DNA from: Girardia tigrina
Taxonomy: Eukaryota
Assembly (NCBI GenBank): GCA_001938485.1
Contig: MQRK01235633.1
Span: 1 to 51,433, forward strand
DNA: 51,433 nucleotides
Reading direction: 5' to 3'
The stretch's first letter is position 1. Every line of letters begins with the position of its first letter. Shown one piece after another: positions 3,066-37,880 of this stretch. The translations under genes and the position numbers were made by a program. The notes under the pieces are model-generated. The model was not told where the DNA came from, searched no databases, and was given only the letters and a program-made list of their open reading frames with translations.

Positions 3066-4802
3066 TTGGCTTGGTCAAAAAGTTATTGCGTTTTTGAGTA
3101 CGTCCTAATAAAAAGCTTGAAAATATAAAACGATGTGATAAAATTTAAATTCAAACCTTAATTTTCAGACTATGTTTATACAAAATATTAATTGATTTTG
3201 TTTTAATTTATTACTTAACCGTCAATTCGAAATGGAAAATCAAAATGAGCATATTCATCATGCTTTGTTGCATTATTTTTGCAAAGGAAAAACCGCTGTG
3301 CAAACTCATAAGAAGATATGTTTTGTATATGGTAGTGACTCCTTAAAACTTCGACTGTATCAATACTGGTTTTCAAAATTTCGTTCTGAAAAATTTCATC
3401 TGAAAGATGCACCACGCTCCGGTCGACCAGTTGAAGTTGATGGCGAAAAAATAACAGCACTAATCAAATCTAATCCACATATGACGACATGAGAAGTTGC
3501 AGAGACTCTGGAAATATCAAAATCAAGTGTTGAAAGTCATTTAAAAAAACTTGGATTCGTCAGTAACTCGATATGTGGTTACCACATTAACTGAAAGAAA
3601 TTCATTTGGTGAAATGTATAGACATTTGCGATTCCCTTTTGAAGCGAGAACAAAGTGATCCATTTTTGAAGCGCTTGATTACGGGTGACGAAAAATGGAT
3701 TGTTTACAACAATGTGGAACGCCGATGATCATGGACAAAACGTGGTGAGCCTGACAAAACGATCCCAAAAGCAGAAATTCACCAAAAGAAGGTTATGCTT
3801 TCCGTCTGGTGGGATTTTAAAGGAATTGTGTTTTTTGAACTCCTTCCGAGAAATGAAACCATCAATTCATACAGATATTGTGGCCTGCTGGAGAAATTGG
3901 CTCATTCAATTCAACAGGAATGTCCTGAATTGGCAAATCGAAAAGGAGTTGTAATTCAGCAGGATAACGCAAGACCGCATACAAGTTTGACCACTCGCCA
4001 GAAACTCTTATCACTGGGTTGGGAGGTTTTGCCGAACCCACCGTATTCTCCAGACTTGGCCCCATCGGATTTTCACTTATTTAGATCACTGCAGAATTCC
4101 TTAAACAGAAAAACATTCGCCAGTGATGATGACATCAAATCGTTCCTAGACTGCTTTTTTGCTGACAAAGGCAAAAGTTTTTAAGAATCAGGAATAATGA
4201 AGCTACCGGAAAGGTGGAAGAAAGTGATTGAAAATAATGGACAGTGTTAAGAGAACTCACACATTTGACAGAACATTTATTACATTCACATTTCTTATCA
4301 TCTTTATGATGATTAATAGTATTGCTTTCACTTAGATCCATCAATCAATTTTCAATATCTCCCATCATAATCTGAACTATACTTGAGCAGACCCCTTTAT
4401 TTAAAAATATTTAATTTAAATTTTATTGGTTGAAATAAAATATTTTTATAGTCATTTTTAAACATTAATTTGATTTTAATTATTTAAAAATTTACAAGAA
4501 TAAAATCATTAAAATTATTTAAAAGTTGCAATAATAAAAATTAAAAATTTGAATATTAAATCTAAATTTAAATAAATTAGTTTCAGATTATAAGAAATTA
4601 AATATTGATAATCCATCTGGTTAGGAGAGGCATAATCCCAAATCAACATAGAACATTTAAACATGCAAAAACTACACAAAAACTTCCACACACCAAATAT
4701 TCCTCACAGACAGTATATCGTGTAAAAATATTTGTGCATCCATGTCATTTTTTGATAATTAATATTTTAGTAAAAAACGCAATGACTTTTTGGCCAACCC
4801 AA
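3066..4802 (+). mobile_element. Full-length defective mariner (DD34D) transposon with ~30-bp TIRs and TA target duplication
   Basis: TIRs ttggcttggtcaaaaagttattgcgttttt / aaaaacgcaatgactttttggccaacccaa; TA at 3064-3065 and 4803-4804; motifs RSGRP, TGDEKW, QQDNARPH, YSPDLAPSD; internal stops and frameshifts. Confidence 0.95.
4245..4708. mobile_element. Solo LTR (464 bp) inserted in the mariner transposase 3' end
   Basis: TGT...ACA termini; 5-bp duplication GACAG at 4240-4244 and 4709-4713; removal restores WKKVIENNGQYIV*. Confidence 0.85.
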
Positions 4803-6192: not shown

Positions 6193-8700
6193 ATGTCTTT
6201 CAGGTATTTGAGTGAATTCCGAATCTTGGTCCATCAAGATTTAAATCCATTCTCTTTGTCACTTGTGTTGATCCAGTTTAGGCAATCAGAGAGTGTCCAT
6301 TCTTTTTTAGTATCGTGATATCTGTCTAGGGTGTTGAATAAATTTATAAAGGTGAGATAACGCGATGTTTCGTCACAGCACACCATGTTCCTGTACGCTT
6401 GAATTATAGATTGTATTGCGTATTCATCTCGGGCAGAGACTAAGCCTTAAACACCCTTTTTCTTGTCAGCATAAATGTAGTCATTGGATGAATTTGGGAA
6501 TGTTCCACAAATCTTCTTCAAGTAACGACGAATTTCCACGTCAATGCCACTTTTAAAGATAGATTTCGTGGTTTCGTGGTGGCCATAATCCGTAAGTTCC
6601 CTGTTTGGTATATTATAATTTCGAAAATAGAAGTTGAATCGTGAGTGTATAAAGATTCTATACGCTTCTATTTTCTTCCAGGGAAATAGTATTGATTTGG
6701 TTATTTTTTCAAATCTTTAATAGCTGATAGAAATAGACATTCAGGAGTGAATTTTGTCTTTCTGGTAAAGTCTACTCCGAGATAACGGTAACCTCCTTCA
6801 TCTGTGTCTATAGGTATTGGTTTGTTATTAATATGGATTGATTCATTCATAGGAGGAGTTGATAAATATCCACATTTGGCTGGGTTGAACTTCGTAGAAG
6901 TCCATTCAACCATGTCACATGCAGATGAAACCATGGCTTGTAAACAAGAGTTGCTAGTTGCAACTAGTGCAATATCATCTGCATAAGCCAGACAAGTAAT
7001 CTTTCCAGCCTCGGTGTCAATACCAAAAGCATCATTATCTTGTAGTACAGCCAAAATTGGATCAATGCCAACGCTGAACAACAGTATTGAAAGCAGACAT
7101 CCTCGTCTAACCGCCCTCCTGATTGATATGTCTTCAGTCTTACAATCATATGATTAATATATGATTAACTAGTGCGCTCGGCCCGCTTCGCGGCCCTCTC
7201 TTGCCGGGGGTTCAATTTTTTTTATATTATAAAAGCCCAAGTCACTCACTGCCTGCCTCACTGCCTCACTAATGCTGTAAGGNNNNNNNNNNNNNNNNNN
7301 NNNNNNNNNNNNNNNNNNNNNNNNNNNNNNNNNNNNNNNNNNNNNNNNNNNNNNNNNNNNNNNNNNNNNNNNNNNNNNNNNNNNNNNNNNNNNNNNNNNN
7401 NNNNNNNNNNNNNNNNNNNNNNNNNNNNNNNNNNNNNNNNNNNNNNNNNNNNNNNNNNNNNNNNNNNNNNNNNNNNNNNNNNNNNNNNNNNNNNNNNNNN
7501 NNNNNNNNNNNNNNNNNNNNNNNNNNNNNNNNNNNNNNNNNNNNNNNNNNNNNNNNNNNNNNNNNNNNNNNNNNNNNNNNNNNNNNNNNNNNNNNNNNNN
7601 NNNNNNNNNNNNNNNNNNNNNNNNNNNNNNNNNNNNNNNNNNNNNNNNNNNNNNNNNNNNNNNNNNNNNNNNNNNNNNNNNNNNNNNNNNNNNNNNNNNN
7701 NNNNNNNNNNNNNNNNNNNNNNNNNNNNNNNNNNNNNNNNNNNNNNNNNNNNNNNNNNNNNNNNNNNNNNNNNNNNNNNNNNNNNNNNNNNNNNNNNNNN
7801 NNNNNNNNNNNNNNNNNNNNNNNNNNNNNNNNNNNNNNNNNNNNNNNNNNNNNNNNNNNNNNNNNNNNNNNNNNNNNNNNNNNNNNNNNNNNNNNNNNNN
7901 NNNNNNNNNNNNNNNNNNNNNNNNNNNNNNNNNNNNNNNNNNNNNNNNNNNNAATTGATATTTTTTCACATTTATTTTTCAACAAATAATACTATTATTA
8001 CGTCAACAATTATTACGTCAGCGTTAGTGAAGCAGGCAGTGAGTGACTTGGGCTTTTATAATATAGATTGGAATGCTGCCAAACGCATCAGTTAGATCGA
8101 GGAATGCAATTTGAAGATGTTGATATTCCTCCAGTAAAATTATCATAACGTTATTGTGTTCAGCGCACTCGTCCGATGGTCAAATGTCTTTTTGGGACTT
8201 TGAAATTAAATTGTTCTTCACCAGCCATTGTTCCAGTTGAGCGAATAGGCAAGATGTGAACAACTTGGCAATGCATTCCATCAGGGCTATTGGTCTCCAT
8301 GATCATATATCTTTGTAATTTCCTGACTTACCGGGTTTAGGTATCATTAGAGTTAGGAATTTCTTGATTTCTTGGAATGATTCCCGTATCAATGATTTTG
8401 TTGAATAATGTGGCCAGAAATTGACAACCCGGGTCGCAATAGTCAATATCTGCATAACCAATGTTTGATATACCTGGACTAGTATTTTTGGTGTTCTTGA
8501 GTATGTTGGCAATCTCTTCTGGAGTAACATGCTGAAATTGAAATTTTGGGCCAGGTTTGATGTTTTTTGCATTGCTCAAGTCTGTTTCAGGAGGATAGTC
8601 GCTTTTTGATTCGGCATAAATTGTAAGAGATTCCAAAGATAGCTCTCCATCAACAGTAGTGTCACTTAAAATTATTTCCATGGCCTTTTTCGGTTTTATT
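6193..8700 (-). pseudogene. Reverse transcriptase/thumb region of the RLE non-LTR element (disrupted)
   Basis: TPEEI..KNTSPG, LDLTDAFGSIP (8069-8101), YADD, YRYLG. Confidence 0.9.
7169..8067 (-). mobile_element. Non-autonomous Helitron-type element spanning an assembly gap
   Basis: Minus strand starts A|TCtatattataaaa at 8067 and ends with GC hairpin ggccgcgaagcgggcc then CTAG|T at 7169; no TSD. Confidence 0.75.
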
Positions 8701-11358: not shown

Positions 11359-12109
11359 GGAAAGCATAATCTTCTTTTGGTGAATTTCTGCTTTTGGGAT
11401 CGTTTTGTCAGGCTCACCACGTTTTGTCCATGATCATCGGCGTTCCACATTGTTGTAAACAATCCATTTTTCGTCACCCGTAATCAAGCGCTTCAAAAAT
11501 GGATCACTTTGTTCTCGCTTCAAAAGGGAATCGCAAATGTCTATACATTTCACCAAATGAATTTCTTTCAGTTAATGTGGTAACCACATATCGAGTTACT
11601 GACGAATCCAAGTTTTTTTAAATGACTTTCAACACTTGATTTTGATATTTCCAGAGTCTCTGCAACTTCTCATGTCGTCATATGTGGATTAGATTTGATT
11701 AGTGCTGTTATTTTTTCGCCATCAACTTCAACTGGTCGACCGGAGCGTGGTGCATCTTTCAGATGAAATTTTTCAGAACGAAATTTTGAAAACCAGTATT
11801 GATACAGTCGAAGTTTTAAGGAGTCACTACCATATACAAAACATATCTTCTTATGAGTTTGCACAGCGGTTTTTCCTTTGCAAAAATAATGCAACAAAGC
11901 ATGATGAATATGCTCATTTTGATTTTCCATTTCGAATTGACGGTTAAGTAATAAATTAAAACAAAATCAATTAATATTTTGTATAAACATAGTCTGAAAA
12001 TTAAGGTTTCAGAATATATCATTGAATTTAAATTTTATCACATCGTTTTATATTTTCAAGCTTTTATTAGGACGTTCTCAAAAACGCAATGACTTTTTGG
12101 CCAACCCAA
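11359..12109 (-). mobile_element. 3'-truncated inverted copy of the 3066-4802 mariner
   Basis: Identical 86-aa N-terminal ORF with the same premature stop; TIR at 12080-12109 abutting (TA)n. Confidence 0.95.
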
Positions 12110-16924: not shown

Positions 16925-17027
16925 AAATTTAGAAATTAAAGTTAAAAGAAAATTTAAAGTTATTTCAAATTAAAGTTAAAAGAAAATTTAAAGTTAATTT
17001 TAAATTAAAGTTAAAAGAAAATTTAAA
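16925..17027. repeat. AT-rich ~34-bp tandem repeat running into an assembly gap
   Basis: aaattaaagttaaaagaaaatttaaagtt repeated three times. Confidence 0.8.
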
Positions 17028-20000
17028 NNNNNNNNNNNNNNNNNNNNNNNNNNNNNNNNNNNNNNNNNNNNNNNNNNNNNNNNNNNNNNNNNNNNNNNNN
17101 NNNNNNNNNNNNNNNNNNNNNNNNNNNNNNNNNNNNNNNNNNNNNNNNNNNNNNNNNNNNNNNNNNNNNNNNNNNNNNNNNNNNNNNNNNNNNNNNNNNN
17201 NNNNNNNNNNNNNNNNNNNNNNNNNNNNNNNNNNNNNNNNNNNNNNNNNNNNNNNNNNNNNNNNNNNNNNNNNNNNNNNNNNNNNNNNNNNNNNNNNNNN
17301 NNNNNNNNNNNNNNNNNNNNNNNNNNNNNNNNNNNNNNNNNNNNNNNNNNNNNNNNNNNNNNNNNNNNNNNNNNNNNNNNNNNNNNNNNNNNNNNNNNNN
17401 NNNNNNNNNNNNNNNNNNNNNNNNNNNNNNNNNNNNNNNNNNNNNNNNNNNNNNNNNNNNNNNNNNNNNNNNNNNNNNNNNNNNNNNNNNNNNNNNNNNN
17501 NNNNNNNNNNNNNNNNNNNNNNNNNNNNNNNNNNNNNNNNNNNNNNNNNNNNNNNNNNNNNNNNNNNNNNNNNNNNNNNNNNNNNNNNNNNNNNNNNNNN
17601 NNNNNNNNNNNNNNNNNNNNNNNNNNNNNNNNNNNNNNNNNNNNNNNNNNNNNNNNNNNNNNNNNNNNNNNNNNNNNNNNNNNNNNNNNNNNNNNNNNNN
17701 NNNNNNNNNNNNNNNNNNNNNNNNNNNNNNNNNNNNNNNNNNNNNNNNNNNNNNNNNNNNNNNNNNNNNNNNNNNNNNNNNNNNNNNNNNNNNNNNNNNN
17801 NNNNNNNNNNNNNNNNNNNNNNNNNNNNNNNNNNNNNNNNNNNNNNNNNNNNNNNNNNNNNNNNNNNNNNNNNNNNNNNNNNNNNNNNNNNNNNNNNNNN
17901 NNNNNNNNNNNNNNNNNNNNNNNNNNNNATGATAGAAACATAAATAAAGATAATGAAATTAAAAATAATAAAATTGAGTACGTCATTAATAAAAACAAAA
18001 TCAATATAAATGGTAAAAATAAAAATAATAACAATAATAAAGTAAACTACAATAATCAAAAAATCGAACCCACTCCCCTCCCCTTGATACCCCGCGGGAG
18101 GACGGGATGTGTTAAACGCTTCCACTGCGCTGCTCCCCCAACAGAGGTTATTTATTTTTAAATTTTTAATAAATAAAAGAATATATTTTATATGTTGAGG
18201 ATTGTTTTATTAGCTTTTGTTTATTAACTTTATTTATTTGCTTCTGTTTATTAGCCTTATTTATTAATGTATTATTTTGGCTTTTATGTAAATAATTAGT
18301 TTTATTTTTATTGTATTATTTTTATATAAATAAAGAATTAATTTAATTATACGAGGATATTATTAAATTATTATTATAATTATCAAGTTAAATATTATCA
18401 ATATTTATAAGGTTAAATATTAAGAATTAAATATTATCAGTATTTATCTTTTAAAATGTTAAAGTATGAAGGGTAAGAACCAGCGAAGCCACGCATTTTC
18501 TTTTGTTATAAGGGTAGGAACCACACAGCCACGCACCCTTAAAATAAGTATATATATCAACAACATTTGAGATTCCTTTTATAAGCTTTTTAAAAAAAAT
18601 TTATTCAGCTATCTTGCCATTGGAGAAGACTTCGAGGAGAAGAAGATTGATTTTCACGAGAAGACGATTTGATTTTTTTTACGAGAAGAAGATGTGATTT
18701 TTTCACAAGAAGACGATTTAATTTTGTTTTACGATAAGGAGATCTGATTTTTTGGATAACAAGTTATTTCTCTCTCGGTGAGATTAAACACATTCATTTG
18801 TTATTATTATATTAACTTTCCATATCAAAATTTTATAAAATTTAAAATAATAATTTTTATTATAATAAAATATCTATTCTTATTTACATAAAATCACACC
18901 TTGTAGTCTGCAGTCGAGGAACTGTGACTACACTAAAATCACTCCATTACACACACAGGCTATTGTCTTATTATTTTATAAAATTTATACCTGTACTTAT
19001 TGAATATAATCAAATAAAATTTATAAAGAAAAGTGTTGTCATTTATTATTGATTTCGAAAATCTTAAAATTCAATAACTAAGTATCAAAATCAACAAGTT
19101 GTAGATCAACCTTTTGTTGGATTTCTACGGAGGTTAGAGACAAATAAACAACCCCCTCGAAACCTAACATATAAATAATTGATTAAGAATTCACACAGTT
19201 GATGATTCGGTGTGCTTGGACTGATGTGGAGCAGTCGAGTCTCGGGTTAAGCGTAGAATATAAAATAGGAATATAAAAGCCATGATTTATTTAGAGAAAG
19301 ATCAGAGTTACATTAATCTAACGAGAAGTGTGAACTGATTAATTTGAGTTGAAAAGAGCTCCGATTAATTTAACATTAAAGAGTTAAAAAGGACTCAGAT
19401 TCGAATTATTTATAAAGATATTTAATAAATAACGAACTAAATTATATATAATACCGCGCTGAAAAGTGTGGCTTTTATCAGGTAAAGCCACACTTTTCAT
19501 AAAACGAAAATCTCGAGTAGTCGCTAAGATTCTCGGCGATTAAAATATAAAATCGGCCAGGGGCCAAGATAATCTATATATATTTAATCTTTTAATTGTG
19601 TACATAAAAGAAAAATAAAACTTTTATAAAATTATTTGTTTTTAATTGATCGCTTTATAAAAATGCTAGATAATCTCTACAAAATCAAGTAATTCGTTTA
19701 TTAACTTGAATAGGTCTTCTTTCAATTAACCGTCATTACAATTATCATTACAATTAGGAATATGTAACTACCGTAATCCCACAACTTTTTCTGTCAACTA
19801 ATTTTATGCGTCTCTAAATCATTTTAGAATTGGACCATTAAGATGTCTGCATTGAAGTAATTCGCAATTACTTTTAGAAAAAGAAAACTATCCAGCCTTA
19901 AGATTTGTTTCTGTGTGGAGTACTGATTTCCATAAACCTTCTTGCATTTAATATTTTAAAAGTAGCTATCTATCATGATTCGCTTGAAATTATGTAAGTA

Positions 20001-21000: not shown

Positions 21001-21937
21001 AGGCATTAAACAGCTGTGTAGCTATAAAGCTTTTTTTTGTATTACAATTTTTAGCTCTTCGAAAATTTAACAGATTATATCGGCACTGATTATCTTCTCA
21101 TGTGTAAAGATATTGGATAATATTACACCTTTTGTCACAAAAGACAACGAACGTATGTTTCTTCACTTTCTTTTGTATTAAAAAATCATTCGAATTAAAA
21201 TTTTCAATCATATCAAAAGCGAATATTACTTTCAAGAAGAATGTATTAATCGAAAATTCTAAATTATTAAAACAAATTTCTGTTTTCATTTTTTTTTAAA
21301 TTATTTTTTTTTAATTTTGGAGGAAATATTTATTTAGATTCTCAAACCCATATCATAAAAATATTTTTATATACACACGAACAACTTGTTAAATTTTATG
21401 TAACTTTGTTTTTTTTTAATTTCCATGAGACTCTTACGTTATTATTTAATTTTTAGAAGATTAATTTTATCCATCGAAAATTTTTATTTCACTTTAAATC
21501 AGAAACAATATGTATTTTCCGTGCTTCATTATTGATTTAGTCACTAAAACCTCTCCAAAATTTCGGAGTAGTTCTTGCATGGTTCTACCAGCGTACTAAA
21601 AGCTAGTCATATAGTCAGCAAATTTTTAAAATCCTTAATGCAAAGAACTTCACTAATTTTTAAATTGAGAGTAATTTTCACTACTATCAAAGTATGAAGT
21701 TTCTTTTGAGTGTGCAAGTAAACCTAGGGTGAAACCTTATACTTTGTAGAGATAAATCTTCCTTTGCGAACTAGAATCGATGGATTCACTCAATTGACTA
21801 TAAATATATTCGCTCTTATGCACCATCCATTAATGCACTGCACGCGAAAAGTTTATTTTCAAAACACTGTTTAATTGATAATATTTAAACAAAATATTTA
21901 TCAAAAAAGTAAATGTCATTTTTCAATATTTATTTTC

Positions 21938-21976
21938 GTAATTAATTTCGGCGGATTACCCGCCATCTACAGACTA
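21938..21976 (-). ncRNA. Minimal hammerhead ribozyme motif with mutated core (CUGUAGA)
   Basis: ctgtaga t ggcgg gtaat ccgcc gaaa ttaa tt. Confidence 0.55.
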
Positions 21977-23191
21977 AATTAACACTGGCTTTTTACAGCT
22001 TATATAAGAGAAAGGTGATTATGCAATCAATCATGTAATAGAGGCTCTATTTGAAAATGTTTAACAGAGAAGTTGAATGTGAAGCTTGGATATTAATTTT
22101 TGGATCCATGGATCTTATTAATAAGGCCTCACACGTTACTCTCTCCCAGTAATTTTCAAATCGATTACACAGAATTTTAAAATCATTTTTGCTCCCATTA
22201 TCCAACCGACTATGCTCTTTGATCCGTTTGCAGAGATGACGAGATGTCTCTCCAATGTATGTGGCGTTACACCCATTACATGTATATTTATAAACAAGAT
22301 CGGAGCACAAACCGAGAGAAGTGGGAGATTTATTACTGAACATATCACGAATTTTATATGATTGGGAAATAATTTTTAGATTCATGGTATTTGGGATCAA
22401 ACTTTTCAAAATTGATGATTTTCAAAATTGATGTTTAAAACCCTCTGAATAAGGAATCGATAAGATATACCTTGATTCAAGTGGGTTATAATTTGTATTA
22501 GGGGAAATGGTTTGATGAATCGTATTATTTTCCATTTTATTAATATAATCTTTTTCATTTAAAATACCTTTATCGTACCTTTATCGTATTTACAGATATT
22601 AATATTCTTTTTTGAAAGATTTTTTAAAATTAAAAAATCTTTATTACTTTGTTTTGCATTTTTATTAATATAGTTAATATTATTTTTATAAAGTACATTT
22701 TTAAAATTTTCAAAATCCATGCTTTTATTTAAATGCGGGTAATTTAAGTTATAAAACTTGAACATACATTCAATTTTTGATTGGAATTTATGTTTATTAA
22801 ATTTTTTACGAATACTATGTTTAGGACCAAATTTTAATAAATTCATTTCCTCTTCATTTAAAGTTTCATCACTTAAGTTTAAAACTGTATTTTGGATATC
22901 AAATTGAAAAACACCAAATAATTTGCGTAAATTTATAAGTTATTTATTCTATTTAAAATGTAAAAAGAAAATCGGAGAAAATGATTTTAAAATTCTGTGT
23001 AATCGATTTAAAAATTACTGGGAGAGAGTAGCGTGTGAGGCCTTATTAATAAGATCCATGTTTCCAAAAATTAATATCCAAGCTTCACACTCAACTTCTC
23101 TGTTAAACATTTTCAAATAGAGCCTTTATTACATGATTGATTGCATAATCACCTTTCTCATATATAAGCTGCAAAAAGCCAGTGTTAATTA

Positions 23192-23230
23192 AGTCTGAAG
23201 ATGGCGGGTAATCCGCCGAAATTAATTACG
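23192..23230 (+). ncRNA. Minimal type I hammerhead ribozyme motif in Penelope pseudo-LTR
   Basis: CUGAAGA-U-GGCGG/CCGCC-GAAA-UUAA-UU; palindromic stem III; weak stem I. Confidence 0.7.
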
Positions 23231-23341
23231 AAAATAAATTGTGAAAAATGGAGTTCACTTTTTAATAATGAATATCAATTTCCATTATTTTTTAAATTCC
23301 TTAAAAAAGTAAATATTAAATATTTCAAATAATTAAAATAT

Positions 23342-24365
23342 CTAATATCCAACACTCCCACCAGATTCGTCCGCAGAAGAATCTGAATCCACAATGTAAT
23401 CATTTAGATAAGGCGGTCTTCGTCTTTCTCTACTAGGCCTACAGTTCAATGATTGTTCCTCTTGTGTTTGATTGTCTGGTAGTGATGTAGTTTCCTCCAT
23501 ATTCATATAGTATGACTTGGAATTTTCAAACAAGTCAGGCTGTATAGGTCGAATGTCTGCGATATGTCTTGGACCACAAAATCCGTTGCAATTTACTAGA
23601 TATTTCCTTTGATCTATTCTTTTCACGACAACACCCTTGGTCCATTGCTGTGTACATGGTGTACTGTTTTCCGGTTTTACCCACACTAATTGATACTCAA
23701 CATAATCTGGATTTCCATAGAACGGCTACTTTTCACTTCTTCCAATTATATCTAACCCTATAGGCAAATAGCTATATAGCGCCGAGCTTGGTGTTTCTTT
23801 TCCTCCAGATGGCGTGTTATTATACCACCATAAGGCTTCCAAAATGCTGATATTTGATCTGGACGCAATTCTTTTGATTGTTCTATGATTCCTTTCTATT
23901 ATTCCGTTGCAGTTGGGTCGATTGATGACACGATACATGACTCGAACGTTCCATTTTTCCATTAGTTTGTTGAATTCTACCGAATGAAATGTGGTATAAT
24001 TATCGATAATTAGTTCCTTGGGAGACCCGCGTTCACAGCACAAACTTGAGAATTCTGAGACAATTGACTTGATGTCTTCAGCCTTAATTAATTTCCATAT
24101 TGCAAAGAGAGAAGGACCACAATCGATTACGCTTAAAAATTTTTGTTGATTGTACTTTGTAACATCCGCAGCAAGTCTTGTCCAGTTTTCGTTGACGCTC
24201 AGCCTACCGGTTTTCCATTTTACGGGTGCCGGATCGATGGATTGACATTTTTGACATCTTGAAATCAGATCCTTGATATCCGCGTTTGACACACCTATTC
24301 CTTGCTTCGAACATAGATATCGCCTTCTGTTTGCGCCTAAATGACACTTATCACGAAGTTGCTGC
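23342..24365 (-). pseudogene. Retroviral-type integrase (HHCC zinc finger + DDE + C-terminal domain)
   Basis: HDKCH...CQKC; AADV, IIDN, NGIIER; C-terminal ORF stops inside the 3' LTR; break near 23700-23726. Confidence 0.9.
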
Positions 24366-24377
24366 AGTTTGAGTAGA

Positions 24378-25034
24378 TCACCCGTAACCGTTAAAAAAAT
24401 AATTGCTTCTTTTTAATTGTTTTGGGATTCTTGTCAACTCATCTGCCTTGTTAGCTTCGCTATTAACAAACTCGATCTTCAACTCGATCTCATACTCCTG
24501 ACACAGCTCCTTGATCATCGACAGTCTTCGTTTTATTAAAAGCTCAGATGAAACCTTGGTATTTAATTTTTCGCGATCTGAGATTGTTGAAACTACTGAC
24601 TTATTACCCGATTTTACTATCACGCTCCTTAAACCCCATTTCACACATAAGTTTAAACCCTTTACAACTGCTTCTAGTTCTGCTACATTAATATGTCTAG
24701 AATCACCAGTTTTTCTCAACCATGATGCGTCCTCGATTATGTTCCCTTTGACTTCTAACGCAGCACCAATGGCTATTGAACTTGCGTCGCACCATATAAT
24801 ACCTTCCCTGCAGTCATCAATAGCCCATAAACCTCTACAAGGATCACTCTCCCTCACTGCCTTTAAAACCCATTTAATCTTCTCGAATAATTCCTCATCT
24901 ATCTTCTCATCCCACTCTTCCTCACTAAGTCGTTTAAGATATGAACATGACGGACGTAGCCAATTAGCTACCGGATGTATTCCTACTAATTGTCCACATA
25001 ACGAATATAACTCGCGACGTGAAATTGATTCCAC
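24378..25034 (-). pseudogene. RT connection + RNase H with DIRS1-like motif pattern
   Basis: WCDAS, HINVAELEAV, VKS(G)NKSV, NKADELTR. Confidence 0.85.
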
Positions 25035-25055
25035 ATCCAGCTCATCCCTTACCTG

Positions 25056-25442
25056 TTACTCGAAAGGCAGTCCAGCCATGAAGGCAGCCTTTGTTATATC
25101 GTCGATCTTCGTTGCTAAAATCTTCACCTGAGATGCATATTCATCGGTAGTCTCGCCATCGTGATACTGTAAGTTTATCAATTGACTGTACGCAGAACGT
25201 CTAGTCAGGCCGAAGGAATTGTTTAATATCTTGAAGAACCGATCGCAGCAGCTTTGCGTCTTCTCGTTCGATTCCATGTAGTTGTTCAGTGCAACGCCCG
25301 ATAGTAAAAAAGGGAGATACGGGGCTGGATCAGTAATCTTCTGGATTTTCATGATCATTTCAAATTTCTTCTGCCAAATCTCGAAACTGATGCTTCCATC
25401 GAATTTCTCAAAAAACTCCAAAACGATTTTCATATCATTCAT
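25056..25442 (-). pseudogene. Gag (capsid-like) N-terminal part
   Basis: FDGS..FEIW..KFE...LSGVA...LQYHDGETTDEYA...FMAGLP; first ATG 15 nt after the LTR. Confidence 0.8.
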
Positions 25443-25445
25443 TAT

Positions 25446-25457
25446 GCCCGGATAGCT
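25446..25457 (-). promoter_or_regulatory. Putative primer-binding site AGCTATCCGGGC, complementary to nt 1-12 of tRNA-Lys(UUU)
   Basis: Directly abuts the 5' LTR terminal CA; plus strand reads GCCCGGATAGCT. Confidence 0.65.
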
Positions 25458-25599
25458 TGTAACACGCGAAAAGTTTATTTTCAAAACACTGTTTAATTGA
25501 TAATATTTAAACAAAATATTTATCAAAAAAGTAAATATTAAATATTTCAAATAATTAAAATATCTAATATCCAACAGATAAATAATAATAGAGATTAGA

Positions 25600-26800
25600 A
25601 TTTTGTGCACAAATTTTTATAATTATAGTGAGAAGATAATTCCTGAAGCATTGTTAATTAAGAATTATAAACCCTACCTAAATATTCAAAGTGAATCATA
25701 CAATCATATTACAATATTGTAGATGTTTTTTTCTATATCTTGAATTAAAAACTAGTAAATCAAAAAAATTTATATTCATTCTTTAACGGGTAGAACTCTA
25801 CTTGATCACATATTTCCTTGTAATCTTTTGTAAAATGGAAAAATACTATTACATATTTTAATAAATTAATATGTTATTAGTAACTATTTAATTCTTTTGA
25901 AGAAGGCAAAATTCCATACAAAAACATTTACAAAAAACATACTTCACTGGACAGTTTTTGTGAACTTAAGTGTAAAAGAAACATGATTAAAGGTTTAATT
26001 TATCGCTCCTGGTCGTTGTCTTCCACTTTTGTTAAATCTGTAGAAAGTGTTAATAACCTAAGTTCTTTGTTAAATTAGAATGGTTATTCTAAATCTTTTC
26101 TAGAAAAATTAATAAAGGAAACAGTAGATAAAATACTTTTGAAAGATTTTTCGAAAAATCAGAATTTGGCTTATCCTGATGGATCTAAGAAAGAAATCGA
26201 AGGATCATTAGATATGAATAATATGCCTAAATATTGTTTAATTGTACCTTATTCTGAAGGATTTAAAAACTTTAAAAATGCATTGTTAAAAGCAACTAAC
26301 AATGAATTAAATTTAAAAATTATCAGGATCTCATAAAATTCAAAATATGTTCAGTAATAAATCTTTAACACTTTGTTCTGATATTATTTATGAATATAAA
26401 TGTAATAAATGCCACATACATTGGAGAGACTGCCCGTCATCTCCGTAAACGAATTCAAGAACATGGTCGAAAAGAGAGAAGAACAATATTGCAGAACATA
26501 GGAAAAAATGTAAATGTGATGTTAATTTTGATAATTTCAAAATTCTGTGTAAGCATTTTGACAGTTATTGGGAGAGAGTGTCATGTGAAGCATTGTTAAT
26601 TAGNNNNNNNNNNNNNNNNNNNNNNNNNNNNNNNNNNNNNNNNNNNNNNNNNNNNNNNNNNNNNNNNNNTTAGCATGATTTCATGCAATCGATTACATAA
26701 TCATCATTTTTGTATTTATATACAGGTGAATTGATTATTAATTAGTGATCTGAAGATGACGGTAGATCCGTCGAAATATATTGTCTTACAATAAATTATG
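25600..26800 (+). mobile_element. Second Penelope-like element (5'-truncated; thumb + GIY-YIG + pseudo-LTR)
   Basis: EALLIKNYKPYLNIQ at ~25640-25690; MIKGLIYRSW..NGYSK; LIVPYSEG; TYIGETARHLRKRIQEH. Confidence 0.85.
26747..26785 (+). ncRNA. Minimal type I hammerhead ribozyme motif
   Basis: GAU-CUGAAGA-U-GACGG/CCGUC-GAAA-UAUA-UU-GUC; all three stems can pair. Confidence 0.8.
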
Positions 26801-33589: not shown

Positions 33590-36500
33590 ACCATATAAGC
33601 ATGTCCCATAGTCGAGCCGGCTGCAAATAAACCGGCTCTCCCACATGAAGCAACCTGGATGAAGGTATGTGGACACACAGTAGGATAAAAAAAGCAAAAC
33701 TTTCCAAAGGGTTGATGAGCTCTTAGGAGCCAACAGCTATCCATACATGAAGAGGAGAAAGGTAACACCAGGTTACTTGCCTACTGATATACCCAAAGAA
33801 GCAAAACCATCATAAATCACTCAACATCGGATCGGTCAGCACCTGAATCAACAACGACCGTGTTACTCATTGGTGTCGACAAGATTATTTTGCTACTACT
33901 GACAAAATGACATTGATAACTTCAGTTTTTATAGGCCCTTGGAATGTGAGATCCTAGTCCCAAAGTGGAAAGATTTAATTATTGGCTAGAGAGTTGGATA
34001 ACATCAGATGGAATGTGGTTCAAATATCAAAAATGAGATGGGCTGGCACAGGTGAGTACAAGACAGAAGATGAACATAAGATGTGGTACTACGGCAATGA
34101 AAATAAGACACAACACGGCGTGGGATTCATATCAAACAAGCGAACTACAACCAAGGTGATGGAATGCAAGTCAATATCAGAAAGAATTTTTGCAATAAAT
34201 TGCCAGTAAACCATTTAACACTACCATTCAACACAACTCACTAACAACTGACTACGATGATGTCGTTGAAGAATTTTATGAACATCATGAGACACTCATT
34301 GGCAATACTACAAAGAAAGATCTACTGTTTATTCTAAGCGACTTGAATGCGTAAATTGGTGAAGGCATTAACCACTCTTCAATTGGGGAAATCGAGCATG
34401 GCATTACAACTGAAAGGGACGTGAAACTCCTAGAATTTGGAAAGACTGAAAATGGTAGTGGCGAAATACTTTGAAAAGATACAATGTATCAAGAAGGACA
34501 ACGTGGCATTCACCTGACGACGTGACTTCGAAACAACTATACTAAATCTTAGTACCTAAGAAATTCAAATCCAGAGTGAAAAAATTCAAAAGGAGAACTC
34601 TTGAGAAACCAGACATCGGAAACAATCACGATCTTGTCATGACAACTTCCCAAATAAAGATCTCCACAAAGACTATAACAAAACATGAAGAACAATATTC
34701 GGACTGGAGAAACTGAAGGATGATAAAATTAGGGATAAGTTTTAGAGTGAACTGTCTTTGCTGCTACTCGAGAAACATCAACCACAAAAACTATTATTTA
34801 TTTCTATCATCATATGACGAGTTCACAAACATTATCACAGATACAACAGAGAAGGTTCTGGGAAAAGGTGATGAAATTCTGGATTAACGCAGAGGTTCTA
34901 GACTGCTGTGACAGACGACGTCAACTTAAAAGCAAAATAAATGAGGGCGAGGAGAAAATGCAAGAATACAAGAATGCAAACAGGTTCGGAGGTTACTGAG
35001 GAATGCCAAAGAGGATTTTGCAGAAGAGCAAGTAAAATTTATTGAAGACAGTTTAGAAATGAACAATAAAGAAGTATTCAAGATAATTAAAAAAATGACA
35101 GTCAAGAAGTGGACAAAAAGTGTAGTTGAGGATCAAGATGGAAACATATGAATAACGAATACAGAAATTTATCAAAGATGGAAAGAATATTGAAGCAAAA
35201 TATACAATTTCAAAGCAGATGTCGACAGCATCGTTATCTCTGAAAAACAAAGTTAGATCATGAAGATCAGTAATACGAAATTTTAAGATGAGATATAAGC
35301 TGCCATAAAAGGTTTGAGATGAACGAAAGCCTAGAAATGGACATCTTCTTATTGACCTTAACCGTTAGGCCCTTGGTGCACCCAATTATAAACAAGCCTT
35401 CGCTACATCTCTGTTTTGTAGTTTCTTTTCTCAGACATTCCATACTCATTCCACTCCATTCTTTTAAATCGTCTATCCATTGCCTCTTTAGTCTTCCTCT
35501 TGGTCTTTCTCCTTCCACTCTTCCATCAATCATTATCTTTACTAGTGTTTGTTTTCTTATCTGATGTCTGTAGAATTTCAGCTTCCTTCTCCTGATAGTC
35601 TCTTCTATTGATTACGGTCTTTTACCTACTATTTCTGTCACTCTTCTCAAGACAAAGTCGTTTGTCTTCTTTTCTTCGCACGTGATCTTCAAAATTCTCC
35701 TGTATCACTTCATTTCAAACGCTTTAAGTCTATCCATGCTCTTCTGATTTATTGTCCAACTCTCGCATCCATAGAGGAGTGTTGCCCAGCTTTGGTGATC
35801 TTTAATCTGCTTTTGAGATGGATTTCTTTGAGGTTAAAAACTGTGCTAAGCTTAATCATTGCGCTTGTTGCAATACCAATCCGGCTTCTGATTTCTTCTT
35901 CGCTTCCCCCATTCTCTGTGATAGTAGAGCCTAAGTATTTGAAACTCTTAACTTGTTCCAGTTTCTCCCCTTCAATGTAAATCTCCAGTTTAACCTAGTT
36001 GTTATGATTTCCTGAAACCATTATTTTGCTTTTTTGTCTGTTGATTTCCATTCCAAATTTGTTTGACGCTTTGTTTAATCTATTCGTAAGTTCCTGAATC
36101 TCTGCCTCATCTTTGCCGATTAGGTCTATGTCATCAGCAAATCGTAGGTTAGTTATTCTTGTTCCTCCGCAGCTTATTCCAACATCGTCTAGATTGTATA
36201 TTGCTTCCATAACAATTCTTTCAAGGAAAAGGTTGGACAGTGTTGATGAAAGAATACAACCTTGTCTTACTCCTACTGATGATTTAATCTAGTCGCTAAA
36301 TTGCTCAGTTGTCAACACTTTTGTCTTTGCGTCTTCGTAAAGGCTCTTAATAATTTTCGTAGCATGAAATCTATAAAGTTATGACAAATTATTTTTTGTG
36401 GTCTCAGGTTTTCTCACATCAGTGCGGAACTAATCTAGAATGGAGACGAAAATACAGTGAACATTTTTCATGCACTATGTAAAAAAAATTTAAACAGTGG

Positions 36501-37880
36501 TGTTTGACCCTAACAATTGACTAAATCCATCCTCATTCCTAAGAAATCGAATAGCAAAAAGTGCAGCAACTTTAGATCAATTGATGGATAAGTAACGCAT
36601 CAACGGTTATATTGAAAGTAATACAAAGAAAATCACACTGAAAGTGTAGTAAATTCTCAGTGAGATGCAGACGAGCTTCAGAAAAGACAGCAGCACTACT
36701 GAGGAGATAACCAAACTGAAAATGCTTTTTGAGAAAACCAGAGACCAAAGTAGAATAATTTGACACAACTTTATAGACTTTTAAAAATCTTTTGAAAGTG
36801 TGTGGTATGAAGCATTAGTGTACACTACGAAAAAGTACAACATTGTAAAACATATTACAAGAATATCAAGAACCTTTAGGAAGAAGCCAAGACCAAAGTG
36901 TTGACAAGTGAACAATTTAGCCACTGGTTTAAATCATCAGTAGGAGTAAGAAAATGTTTCATTCTATCATCAATAGTGTTCAACCTTTTCCTTTGGGGCA
37001 TTGTTATGGAAGCAATAGACGACCTAGACAATGTCGGAATAAGCTGCATAGGAAGGAGAGTAACAAACCTAAGATTTGCCGACGACATAGACTTTAATTG
37101 GTAAAGATAAGATAAAGAAAGTTACAAAAAGACTACACAAAGTGTTCAAGAAATTAGAAAAAGAAATCAACAAAGAAAAAAGCAAAATAATGATCTCTGG
37201 AAACTGTAACGACGTCAAATTGGCGATCATCATTGAAGGGAAACAGATAGAACAAGTTAAGAGTTTCAAATACATAGACTCTACTATCACTGAGAATGTA
37301 TGAATGGAAGAAGAAACCTGAAACAGGATTTGTATTGCAACAATTGCAATCATTAGACTTAGAACAGTTTTTAACCTCAAAGAAATTAAACTCAAGAGCA
37401 AAATGAAAATAATTAATGCTATTGTATGGACAAAATTTCTCAATGGATACGTGATTTTATCTAAATCAGAAAATTTTAACTAAAGCTAAATGTAAATTTT
37501 AACTAAATCAGAGCATGGACTAAAGCCTTTTAAATGAAGTAAAAAAGATCACTTGTTAAAAAAGAGAACAAACGACTTTGACTGGAAGAGTTACAGAAAT
37601 ACTAAGTGGAAGACCGCAATAAATAAAAGATACCATTAAGAGAAGGAATCTGAAATTCTATGAACATCAGATGGGAAAATAAATACTAACAAAGGTGATG
37701 ATTGAAGGAAGAGTGGAAGGAGAAAGACTAAAGACAACGGGAAGAGTATTTAAAAGAATGGAGTGGATGTAACGTGGAAGGTTTGACAAAAACGGCGTTA
37801 AATAGAGAGCATTTGCGAAGGCTTCTGCATAATTGGGTTCAGCAACGGCCAAACAGCTAAGGTCGAAAAGAAAGAAGATC
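33590..37880 (+). mobile_element. Decayed near-full-length RTE-clade LINE (APE endonuclease + RT), interrupted by an inverted related copy
   Basis: WNVR, MRWAG, HGVGF, SDLNA, NHDLV; GVRKCFILS, NLRFADDID, FKYIDS, EGRVEG; aaga-type tail near 37870. Confidence 0.85.
35343..36360 (-). mobile_element. 5'-truncated RTE-clade LINE
   Basis: GVRQGCILS, NLRFADDIDL, FKYLGS, LLYGCESW, GRVEGERPRGR..QWIDD; aagaaga tail. Confidence 0.9.

Follow-up and report, generated by a model that had tools for sequence, protein, structure and literature searches.

Putative primer-binding sites complementary to nucleotides 1 to 12 of host tRNAs in an LTR retrotransposon lineage of Girardia tigrina

Introduction

What primes DNA synthesis in an LTR retrotransposon whose 5′ LTR is not followed by TGG? 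The question is raised by an element within a 51,433-nt stretch of Girardia tigrina DNA (contig MQRK01235633.1 of assembly GCA_001938485.1, positions 1 to 51,433), here called the window. A sequence-only reading of the window had noticed that the 12 nt adjoining the LTR match the complement of the start of animal tRNA-Lys(UUU), and it proposed priming by a 12-nt 5′ tRNA fragment cut in the D stem, perhaps by the element's atypical RNase H, or priming from an internal 2′-OH. A survey of plant LTR elements distinguishes, in the extracts available, three primer types, namely, a whole tRNA, an anticodon-cut half tRNA, and a self-primer (PMC6317226). Corresponding extracts describe anticodon-loop primers taken from further tRNAs in fungal Copia elements (PMC10886601) and a primer site for a tRNA 3′ end in flatworm TRIMs (PMC4558846).

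Results

The window element and its LTR boundary

The element is a dead LTR element lying on the reverse strand (Table 1). A deletion in this copy has removed the rest of gag, the protease, and the RT core; full-length natural copies are ~3.8 to 3.9 kb long. Read along the minus strand, the end of the LTR, GTGTTACA, is followed directly by the 12-mer AGCTATCCGGGC and then by ATA ATG, the gag ATG being at 25442, 3 nt past the 12-mer. A second Penelope-like GIY-YIG remnant lies directly outside the element's 5′ LTR (window 25577-26760).

TABLE 1 Annotated parts of the window element and of the insertion that splits it
Feature	Position	Strand	Basis
5′ LTR, TG..CA, 119 bp	25458..25576	-	End established from TSDs of 5 bp and the 3′ LTRs of sister copies
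Primer-binding site, 12 nt, LTR-flush, complement of host tRNA-Lys(UUU) nt 1-12	25446..25457	-	Predicted from sequence
gag 5′ part, 128 aa	25059..25442	-	Retrotrans_gag E=0.005, under cut-off
Internal-deletion junction, ~1.5 kb gone	25055..25058	-	Alignment to natural copies of full length, L063-L065
RT thumb (DUF7047) and RNase H (RVT_3-type)	24381..25055	-	DUF7047 E=4.8e-17, RVT_3 E=1.7e-10
Integrase: zinc finger, core, C-terminal part; frameshift before, one stop inside	23363..24412	-	rve E=0.005
Polypurine tract adjoining 3′ LTR	23355..23362	-	Sequence
3′ LTR, first 52 nt only (broken)	23303..23354	-	Sequence
Foldback Penelope-like insertion splitting 3′ LTR; 286-nt inverted arms, GIY-YIG remnant	21904..23263	.	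GIY-YIG E=0.0015, under cut-off
Displaced 3′ LTR piece, LTR nt 41-114, terminal 5 nt absent	21841..21914	-	Sequence

Since the window's 3′ LTR is broken and lacks its last 5 nt, the LTR end had to be established from sister copies. In 24 of 29 sister 3′ LTRs, the CA end falls at LTR nt 119 and is followed by unrelated host DNA; two of the others have damaged ends and three are truncated. Target duplications of 5 bp flank 7 of 10 two-LTR copies. The 12-mer directly follows the LTR in all 30 of the 5′ LTR copies that we fetched by their likeness to a query containing it (26 exact, 2 with N, and 2 with one change). An unbiased pattern placed 606 copies in the window family, with 87 exact sites, scored by eye, among the first 100 listed.

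Within the window, the 12-mer occurs once when up to one mismatch is allowed (0.02 expected by chance), and its complement is therefore absent from the window LTR. The whole genome holds 2,443 exact copies, versus 11 for a reversed control. Twenty exact loci from the top of the list represent several distinct families, and 18 of them are element junctions; the other 2 belong to an unrelated repeat family (L294, L297, and L209), where the same 12-mer is internal and stands after CAT, not after an LTR end.

Pairing with host tRNA-Lys(UUU)

Four host tRNA-Lys(UUU) genes start with GCCCGGATAGCT, the exact complement of the 12-mer, so that the earlier match, made to the general animal tRNA, is borne out in the host itself and, through the sister-copy LTR ends, at the very edge of the LTR. 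Pairing covers exactly nt 1 to 12; nt 13 and the pre-tRNA leader are unpaired. The 12-bp duplex has a calculated energy of -25.5 kcal/mol, versus -29.6 kcal/mol for the fold of the whole tRNA. In a search of the rest of the element for a conventional site, the best match to the 3′ end of this tRNA was 9 nt long and lay inside gag.

Phe-type sites in the same genome

A pattern excluding the Lys site matched the genome 1,138 times, versus 81 times for the control. By eye, 78 of the first 100 matches listed read AGCTATCGCGGC, which is the complement of nt 1 to 12 of host tRNA-Phe(GAA). These Phe-type sites are spread over many families with differing LTR ends and Gag starts. When 20 such loci were fetched at greater length, the lineage's pol was present in 12 and gag or pol in 15, and a second LTR ended flush with the site in 6, two of which are one duplicated locus. 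Rather than being confined to tRNA-Lys or the window element, the 12-mer site marks a whole lineage, mostly in a tRNA-Phe form.

We saw no uninterrupted host tRNA-Phe gene; nt 1 to 31 and nt 16 to 73 lie on one contig, flanking an insertion, and the acceptor strands of this split tRNA-Phe(GAA) pair with each other. The insertion at this locus (L450, G000:C181207, 89-1946) is ~1.8 kb long and is accompanied by a duplication of ~16 nt of the gene; these half-gene junctions are found again on further contigs (L172, L173, L225, L246, and L247). The insertion resembles a mobile element with tRNA-Phe genes as its targets.

Neither of the two Lys families tested yielded a two-mismatch conversion to a Phe-type site, and three apparent conversions in Lys families were rejected as members of a Phe family. 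No sites of the Thr(UGU/CGU) or Met type were found in the genome. An Ile(UAU)-type site (L277/L278) was not counted: it represents a single locus that has been duplicated, and double variants of other kinds are just as common.

Lys(CUU) variants among Lys-type sites

Covariation with other tRNAs, Lys-CUU among them, had been named in advance as a check on the proposed priming, and both the Phe-type sites of other families and the variants described here agree with it. Within nt 1 to 12, host tRNA-Lys(CUU) differs from tRNA-Lys(UUU) at nt 7 alone. Among the first 100 listed of 122 matches, counted by eye, the non-T letters opposite nt 7 comprised 17 T>G changes, which give the Lys(CUU) complement, 2 T>A changes, and 15 transitions. 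At a neighboring T, the same classes numbered 2, 13, and 14 (Fisher p=1.2e-5 versus the nt-7 position), and the background in the family was 34 T>G and 61 T>A. All 17 Lys(CUU)-type copies are true element junctions, and they belong to five families.

The distribution of these copies bears on how they arose. In one family of 129 copies, the first 100 listed carry T in 97 cases and G in the remaining 3, G being a 3% minority, and in two families three G copies carry no shared private variants. Three of the 17 copies form a subfamily. One family lacks an established majority state, and 12 of 14 then remain (p=1.8e-4). Taken alone, the window family shows no significant Lys(CUU) excess (3 of 5 transversions, p=0.25). 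We replaced family trees with counts of shared variants because internal deletions spoiled the trees; in these deletion-spoiled alignments, a single clade of variants was not rejected in the window family (p-AU 0.75), and a single clade for 2 copies was rejected in another family (p=0.016). The same first 100 of the 122 matches also hold 7 T>A variants of the Phe-type site at the nt-7 position and no T>G variant of it; these may be background or a subfamily.

In retroviruses, copying of the primer leaves scattered near-cognate variants of the primer-binding site, as set out in section 4.3 of PMC7472051. The scattered Lys(CUU) copies are as would be expected if primer sequence were copied into progeny here too. 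Selection acting on chance mutants is an alternative origin for them, and either route requires pairing with the tRNA.

Relatives in metagenomes and other animals

We found 173 long relatives, with names from crustaceans and molluscs. A metagenome scan yielded 77 loci, with the gag start in 52 and upstream DNA in 50; after L099 and L115 were dropped as truncated, 50 metagenome relatives were tallied. Their best RT segments are 31 to 47% identical. The motif AGCTA-N4-GGC, its frame derived from the same loci that were then tallied, is exact in 44 of the 50, has one difference in 3, and has two differences or an indel in 3. The site comes after CA in 47 and has the gag ATG 0 to 30 nt downstream in 48, among 44 distinct junction contexts. 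Over 626 kb, there are 52 occurrences of the motif on the coding strand against a single one on the opposite strand. Four linear elements retain both LTRs, and in these the end of the repeat is independently flush with the site.

Two further observations in the original reading hold across this set. The absence of TGG at the junction extends from the 30 family copies (0/30) to all 50 relatives (0/50), and the absence of a complement within the LTR is matched by a longest self-complementary run of 5 to 8 nt anywhere in each of the 50 loci.

Half of the relatives' sites (25 of 50) correspond to a verified tRNA start, one that belongs to organisms other than the contigs' own hosts. The commonest form (13 of 50) equals the 3′ end of a Drosophila tRNA-Phe 5′ probe given in extracts of PMC7038984; 11 have the Phe form of the G. 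tigrina genome and 1 has its Lys form. Among the remaining 25, two forms are seen at the start of tRNA-Phe in viral contigs, not in hosts, which is a weak indication. On an RT tree of 51 rows, itself weakly supported, the type of site switches 19 times or more. A scan of viral contigs identified no relatives.

Two relatives have individual features. L101 carries a tRNA-like stretch (~1845-1950), which ARAGORN does not call, between its Phe-type primer site and gag, with a T-run in the leader. L132 (~2740-2752) has the only site starting with C; it resembles the start of an elongator tRNA-Met and differs by one base from that of G. tigrina (G000). This Met-like assignment is tentative because no CA precedes the site and the locus has no independent LTR boundary.

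Classification of the lineage

The lineage has the features of an LTR retrotransposon of the Ortervirales type: TG..CA LTRs, a polypurine tract, 5-bp TSDs, and Gag, protease, RT, and RNase H proteins along with an integrase. A predicted RT model matches viral RT folds, and acidic active-site motifs of RNase H are visible in the relatives' sequences. The domain order, PR-RT-RH-IN without a tether, is that of Ty3/Gypsy (Metaviridae). Mean RT identity is 22% to 8 host Gypsy RTs, themselves mutually close kin, and 19% to 2 BEL RTs; identities are 12 to 18% to caulimoviral, foamy, HIV, MLV, and Ty3 structures. A profile scan of 17 proteins found DUF7047 in all 17 and RVT_3 in 15, with no Gypsy-type RNase H (PF17917/PF17919) in any of them and no Gypsy, BEL, or Copia profile. 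Because those profiles are absent and RVT_3 is present, the description of the RNase H as atypical stands as a statement about profiles. Searches of Atlas and PDB structures gave no name for the lineage.

BEL/Pao elements have a triple zinc knuckle; we rejected this assignment because the Peptidase_A17 region (PF05380) was found in 0 of 17 proteins and the window family has one knuckle. Copia was rejected because the RT precedes the integrase and the primer-binding site is not that of an anticodon stem-loop. A further comparison is with the Troyka elements, or Kuafuorterviruses, likewise an LTR lineage of aquatic animals with short LTRs and a gypsy-like domain order, far from classic Gypsy (extracts of PMC12440569 and PMC11673190). 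These were rejected on their ends, TSDs, RT motif, and zinc knuckle: the same extracts, which give no primer site, describe CG..CG ends, 3-bp TSDs, [IVL]ADD, and a long knuckle (CX2CX8-10HX4C), whereas the window lineage has TG..CA, 5-bp TSDs, YIDD/YVDD, and a short knuckle (CX2CX3-4HX4C). The lineage thus fits neither Troyka, BEL, nor Copia; against Gypsy, on RT identities and profile matches, it is unplaced.

Discussion

A model for priming from tRNA nt 1 to 12

The site, its position flush with the LTR, its match to a host tRNA, and its change along with the tRNA are direct observations. The DNA-level evidence, that is, the host match, the kept site, and the covariation, supports the proposal of priming by a 5′ tRNA fragment, and we think it very likely that synthesis is primed from tRNA nt 1 to 12. 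If so, the chances that the element's own RNase H makes the cut appear about even. Taken together, we judge it probable that the lineage's primer-binding site is the complement of nt 1 to 12 of a mature host tRNA and that a 12-nt 5′ tRNA fragment serves as the primer, probably cut by the element's RNase H.

In LTR elements, DNA synthesis starts at, or within ~2 bases of, the LTR edge. As only tRNA nt 1 to 12 pair there, the primer end should lie inside the D stem; it could be at nt 10 instead if the integrase trims two bases. Gag-assisted annealing would unfold the acceptor and D stems to form the 12-bp RNA duplex, and cleavage of the tRNA after nt 12 would then place a 3′-OH at the edge of the LTR, a trans counterpart of the cut that the RNase H of Tf1 makes at the 5′ end of its own mRNA. 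The RT would extend the fragment into U5, and plus-strand synthesis would copy the attached fragment to its 5′ end, regenerating nt 1 to 12 exactly and occasionally introducing the letters of a near-cognate tRNA (Lys-CUU). A fragment ending at tRNA nt 1 would be a natural stop for the plus strand, which would explain both the exact end of the site and the Lys(CUU) letters. A still fuller picture, held tentatively and with somewhat less than even confidence, is that of an unnamed, widespread LTR lineage, equally far from Gypsy and BEL, whose RT-RNase H clips 12 nt off the 5′ end of tRNA-Phe or -Lys, primes with them, and copies them back.

The fragment might instead be made by the host, through a D-loop cut leaving ~14 to 16 nt, and be harvested by the element, with its unpaired 3′ tail trimmed to nt 12. 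D-loop-cut 5′ tRNA fragments are a known class (tRF-5a), all of the pairing evidence fits such a source equally well, and the exclusive use of tRNAs with a U8-A9-G10-C11 start could mirror the pattern of a host nuclease or modification. The trimming step would still be needed, however, because pairing stops at nt 12, the LTR's CA being fixed, and because the same 12-nt end is found in very distant elements and hosts we favor a ruler borne by the element; a host-made fragment seems possible but rather unlikely. The other source raised at the outset, an intact tRNA from which the RT primes at the 2′-OH of nt 12, would need no cut and would account for both the LTR-flush internal end and the copying of nt 1 to 12. 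The product would be a branched RNA-DNA, as made by retrons through 2′-OH priming, but to our knowledge no LTR-type RT primes in this way. Half-tRNA and Tf1 primers are, moreover, described as cleaved in extracts of PMC6317226, and we regard 2′-OH priming as improbable.

Another explanation is that the 12-mer is no primer site at all, the element being primed by something else, and that it is a conserved motif for packaging, translation, or protein binding, or a sequence targeted by 5′ tRNA fragments of the host. This would suit its place 0 to 30 nt ahead of the ATG of gag in 48 of the 50 relatives and the near fixity of eight of its letters. Yet the letters that do vary agree with those of host tRNAs (Lys-UUU, Phe, and Lys-CUU), the site occupies the obligatory position of a primer site, and a mere silencing target would not be retained. 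Nor is there another candidate, as there is no TGG, no self-complement, and no better match to a tRNA 3′ end than the 9 nt deep in gag. We give this explanation little credence, a shade less than 2′-OH priming. Self-priming of the Tf1 type, by the 5′ end of the transcript itself, would agree with the length and position of the site, the Tf1 self-primer being 11 nt long; the complement is missing from the window LTR and from all 50 relatives, which refutes it at the DNA level barring a nontemplated or trans-spliced transcript 5′ end and makes it extremely improbable.

Relation to known primers

Priming from nt 1 to 12 of a tRNA would resemble half-tRNA priming in drawing on the 5′ part of a host tRNA rather than on the CCA end, as we predict here from sequence. 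Half-tRNA systems include Drosophila copia, yeast Ty5, Osser, Bianca, and fungal Copia/Helenus, all Copia elements with a site for the anticodon stem-loop in the extracts available (PMC6317226 and PMC10886601); the site of the window lineage pairs instead with acceptor and D stems, and the lineage differs further in its PR-RT-RH-IN order and its Phe or Lys tRNAs. In the Tf1/sushi group (Tf1, Tj1, and Tcn1), as in this lineage, a short LTR-adjacent site pairs with the very 5′ terminus of an RNA, and a cut in that RNA is needed to yield the 3′-OH (extracts of PMC4600332). In Tf1 that RNA is the element's own mRNA, whereas elements of this lineage lack the complement, which is located in a host tRNA. 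The lineage also resembles retroviruses in having near-cognate tRNA variants scattered among its copies: primer sequence is copied into progeny in HIV, MLV, and ETn, the last with a switch to Lys-CUU (section 4.3 of PMC7472051). What retroviruses copy is 18 nt at the 3′ end of an intact tRNA, and the same source states that Ty1 and Ty3 do not inherit primer sequence.

Our literature searches, including searches with the 12-mers, found no primer site for tRNA nt 1 to 12, though an earlier description in Repbase is possible. Fragment priming by tRNA nt 1 to 12, extended from one element to a lineage, is likely to be new. Such a fragment, 12 nt from the 5′ end of a tRNA, would make a fourth primer type, in a lineage with thousands of copies in the genome studied; it would amount to a trans form of Tf1 self-priming, linking tRNA priming with self-priming, and to a programmable tRNA-cutting RT. 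The origin of the 3′-OH in fragment primers is an old question that becomes testable on a minimal 12-bp substrate. Release of the Tf1 self-primer reportedly requires RNase H. We would also predict that elements of this lineage interact with 5′ tRNA fragments and not with 3′ ones, and they could, as the original reading suggested, escape silencing by the latter. In practice, the 12-mer site is a simple marker by which to define the lineage, and finders of primer-binding sites keyed to TGG or to tRNA 3′ ends would miss it.

Other features of the window

Elsewhere in the window, a 651-nt inverted repeat (3153-3803 and 11359-12009) is 100% complementary over arms 7.5 kb apart, which probably reflects either a young DNA transposon or an effect of the assembly. 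Five or six reading frames are open simultaneously at 7169-8095 and 16933-18206, probably in low-complexity or N-rich repeats, and a 40-nt inverted repeat (7223-7262/8026-8065) bounds one of these stretches. A long series of nested inverted repeats at 35426-37791, 75 to 83% complementary, forms an old foldback of ~2.3 kb.
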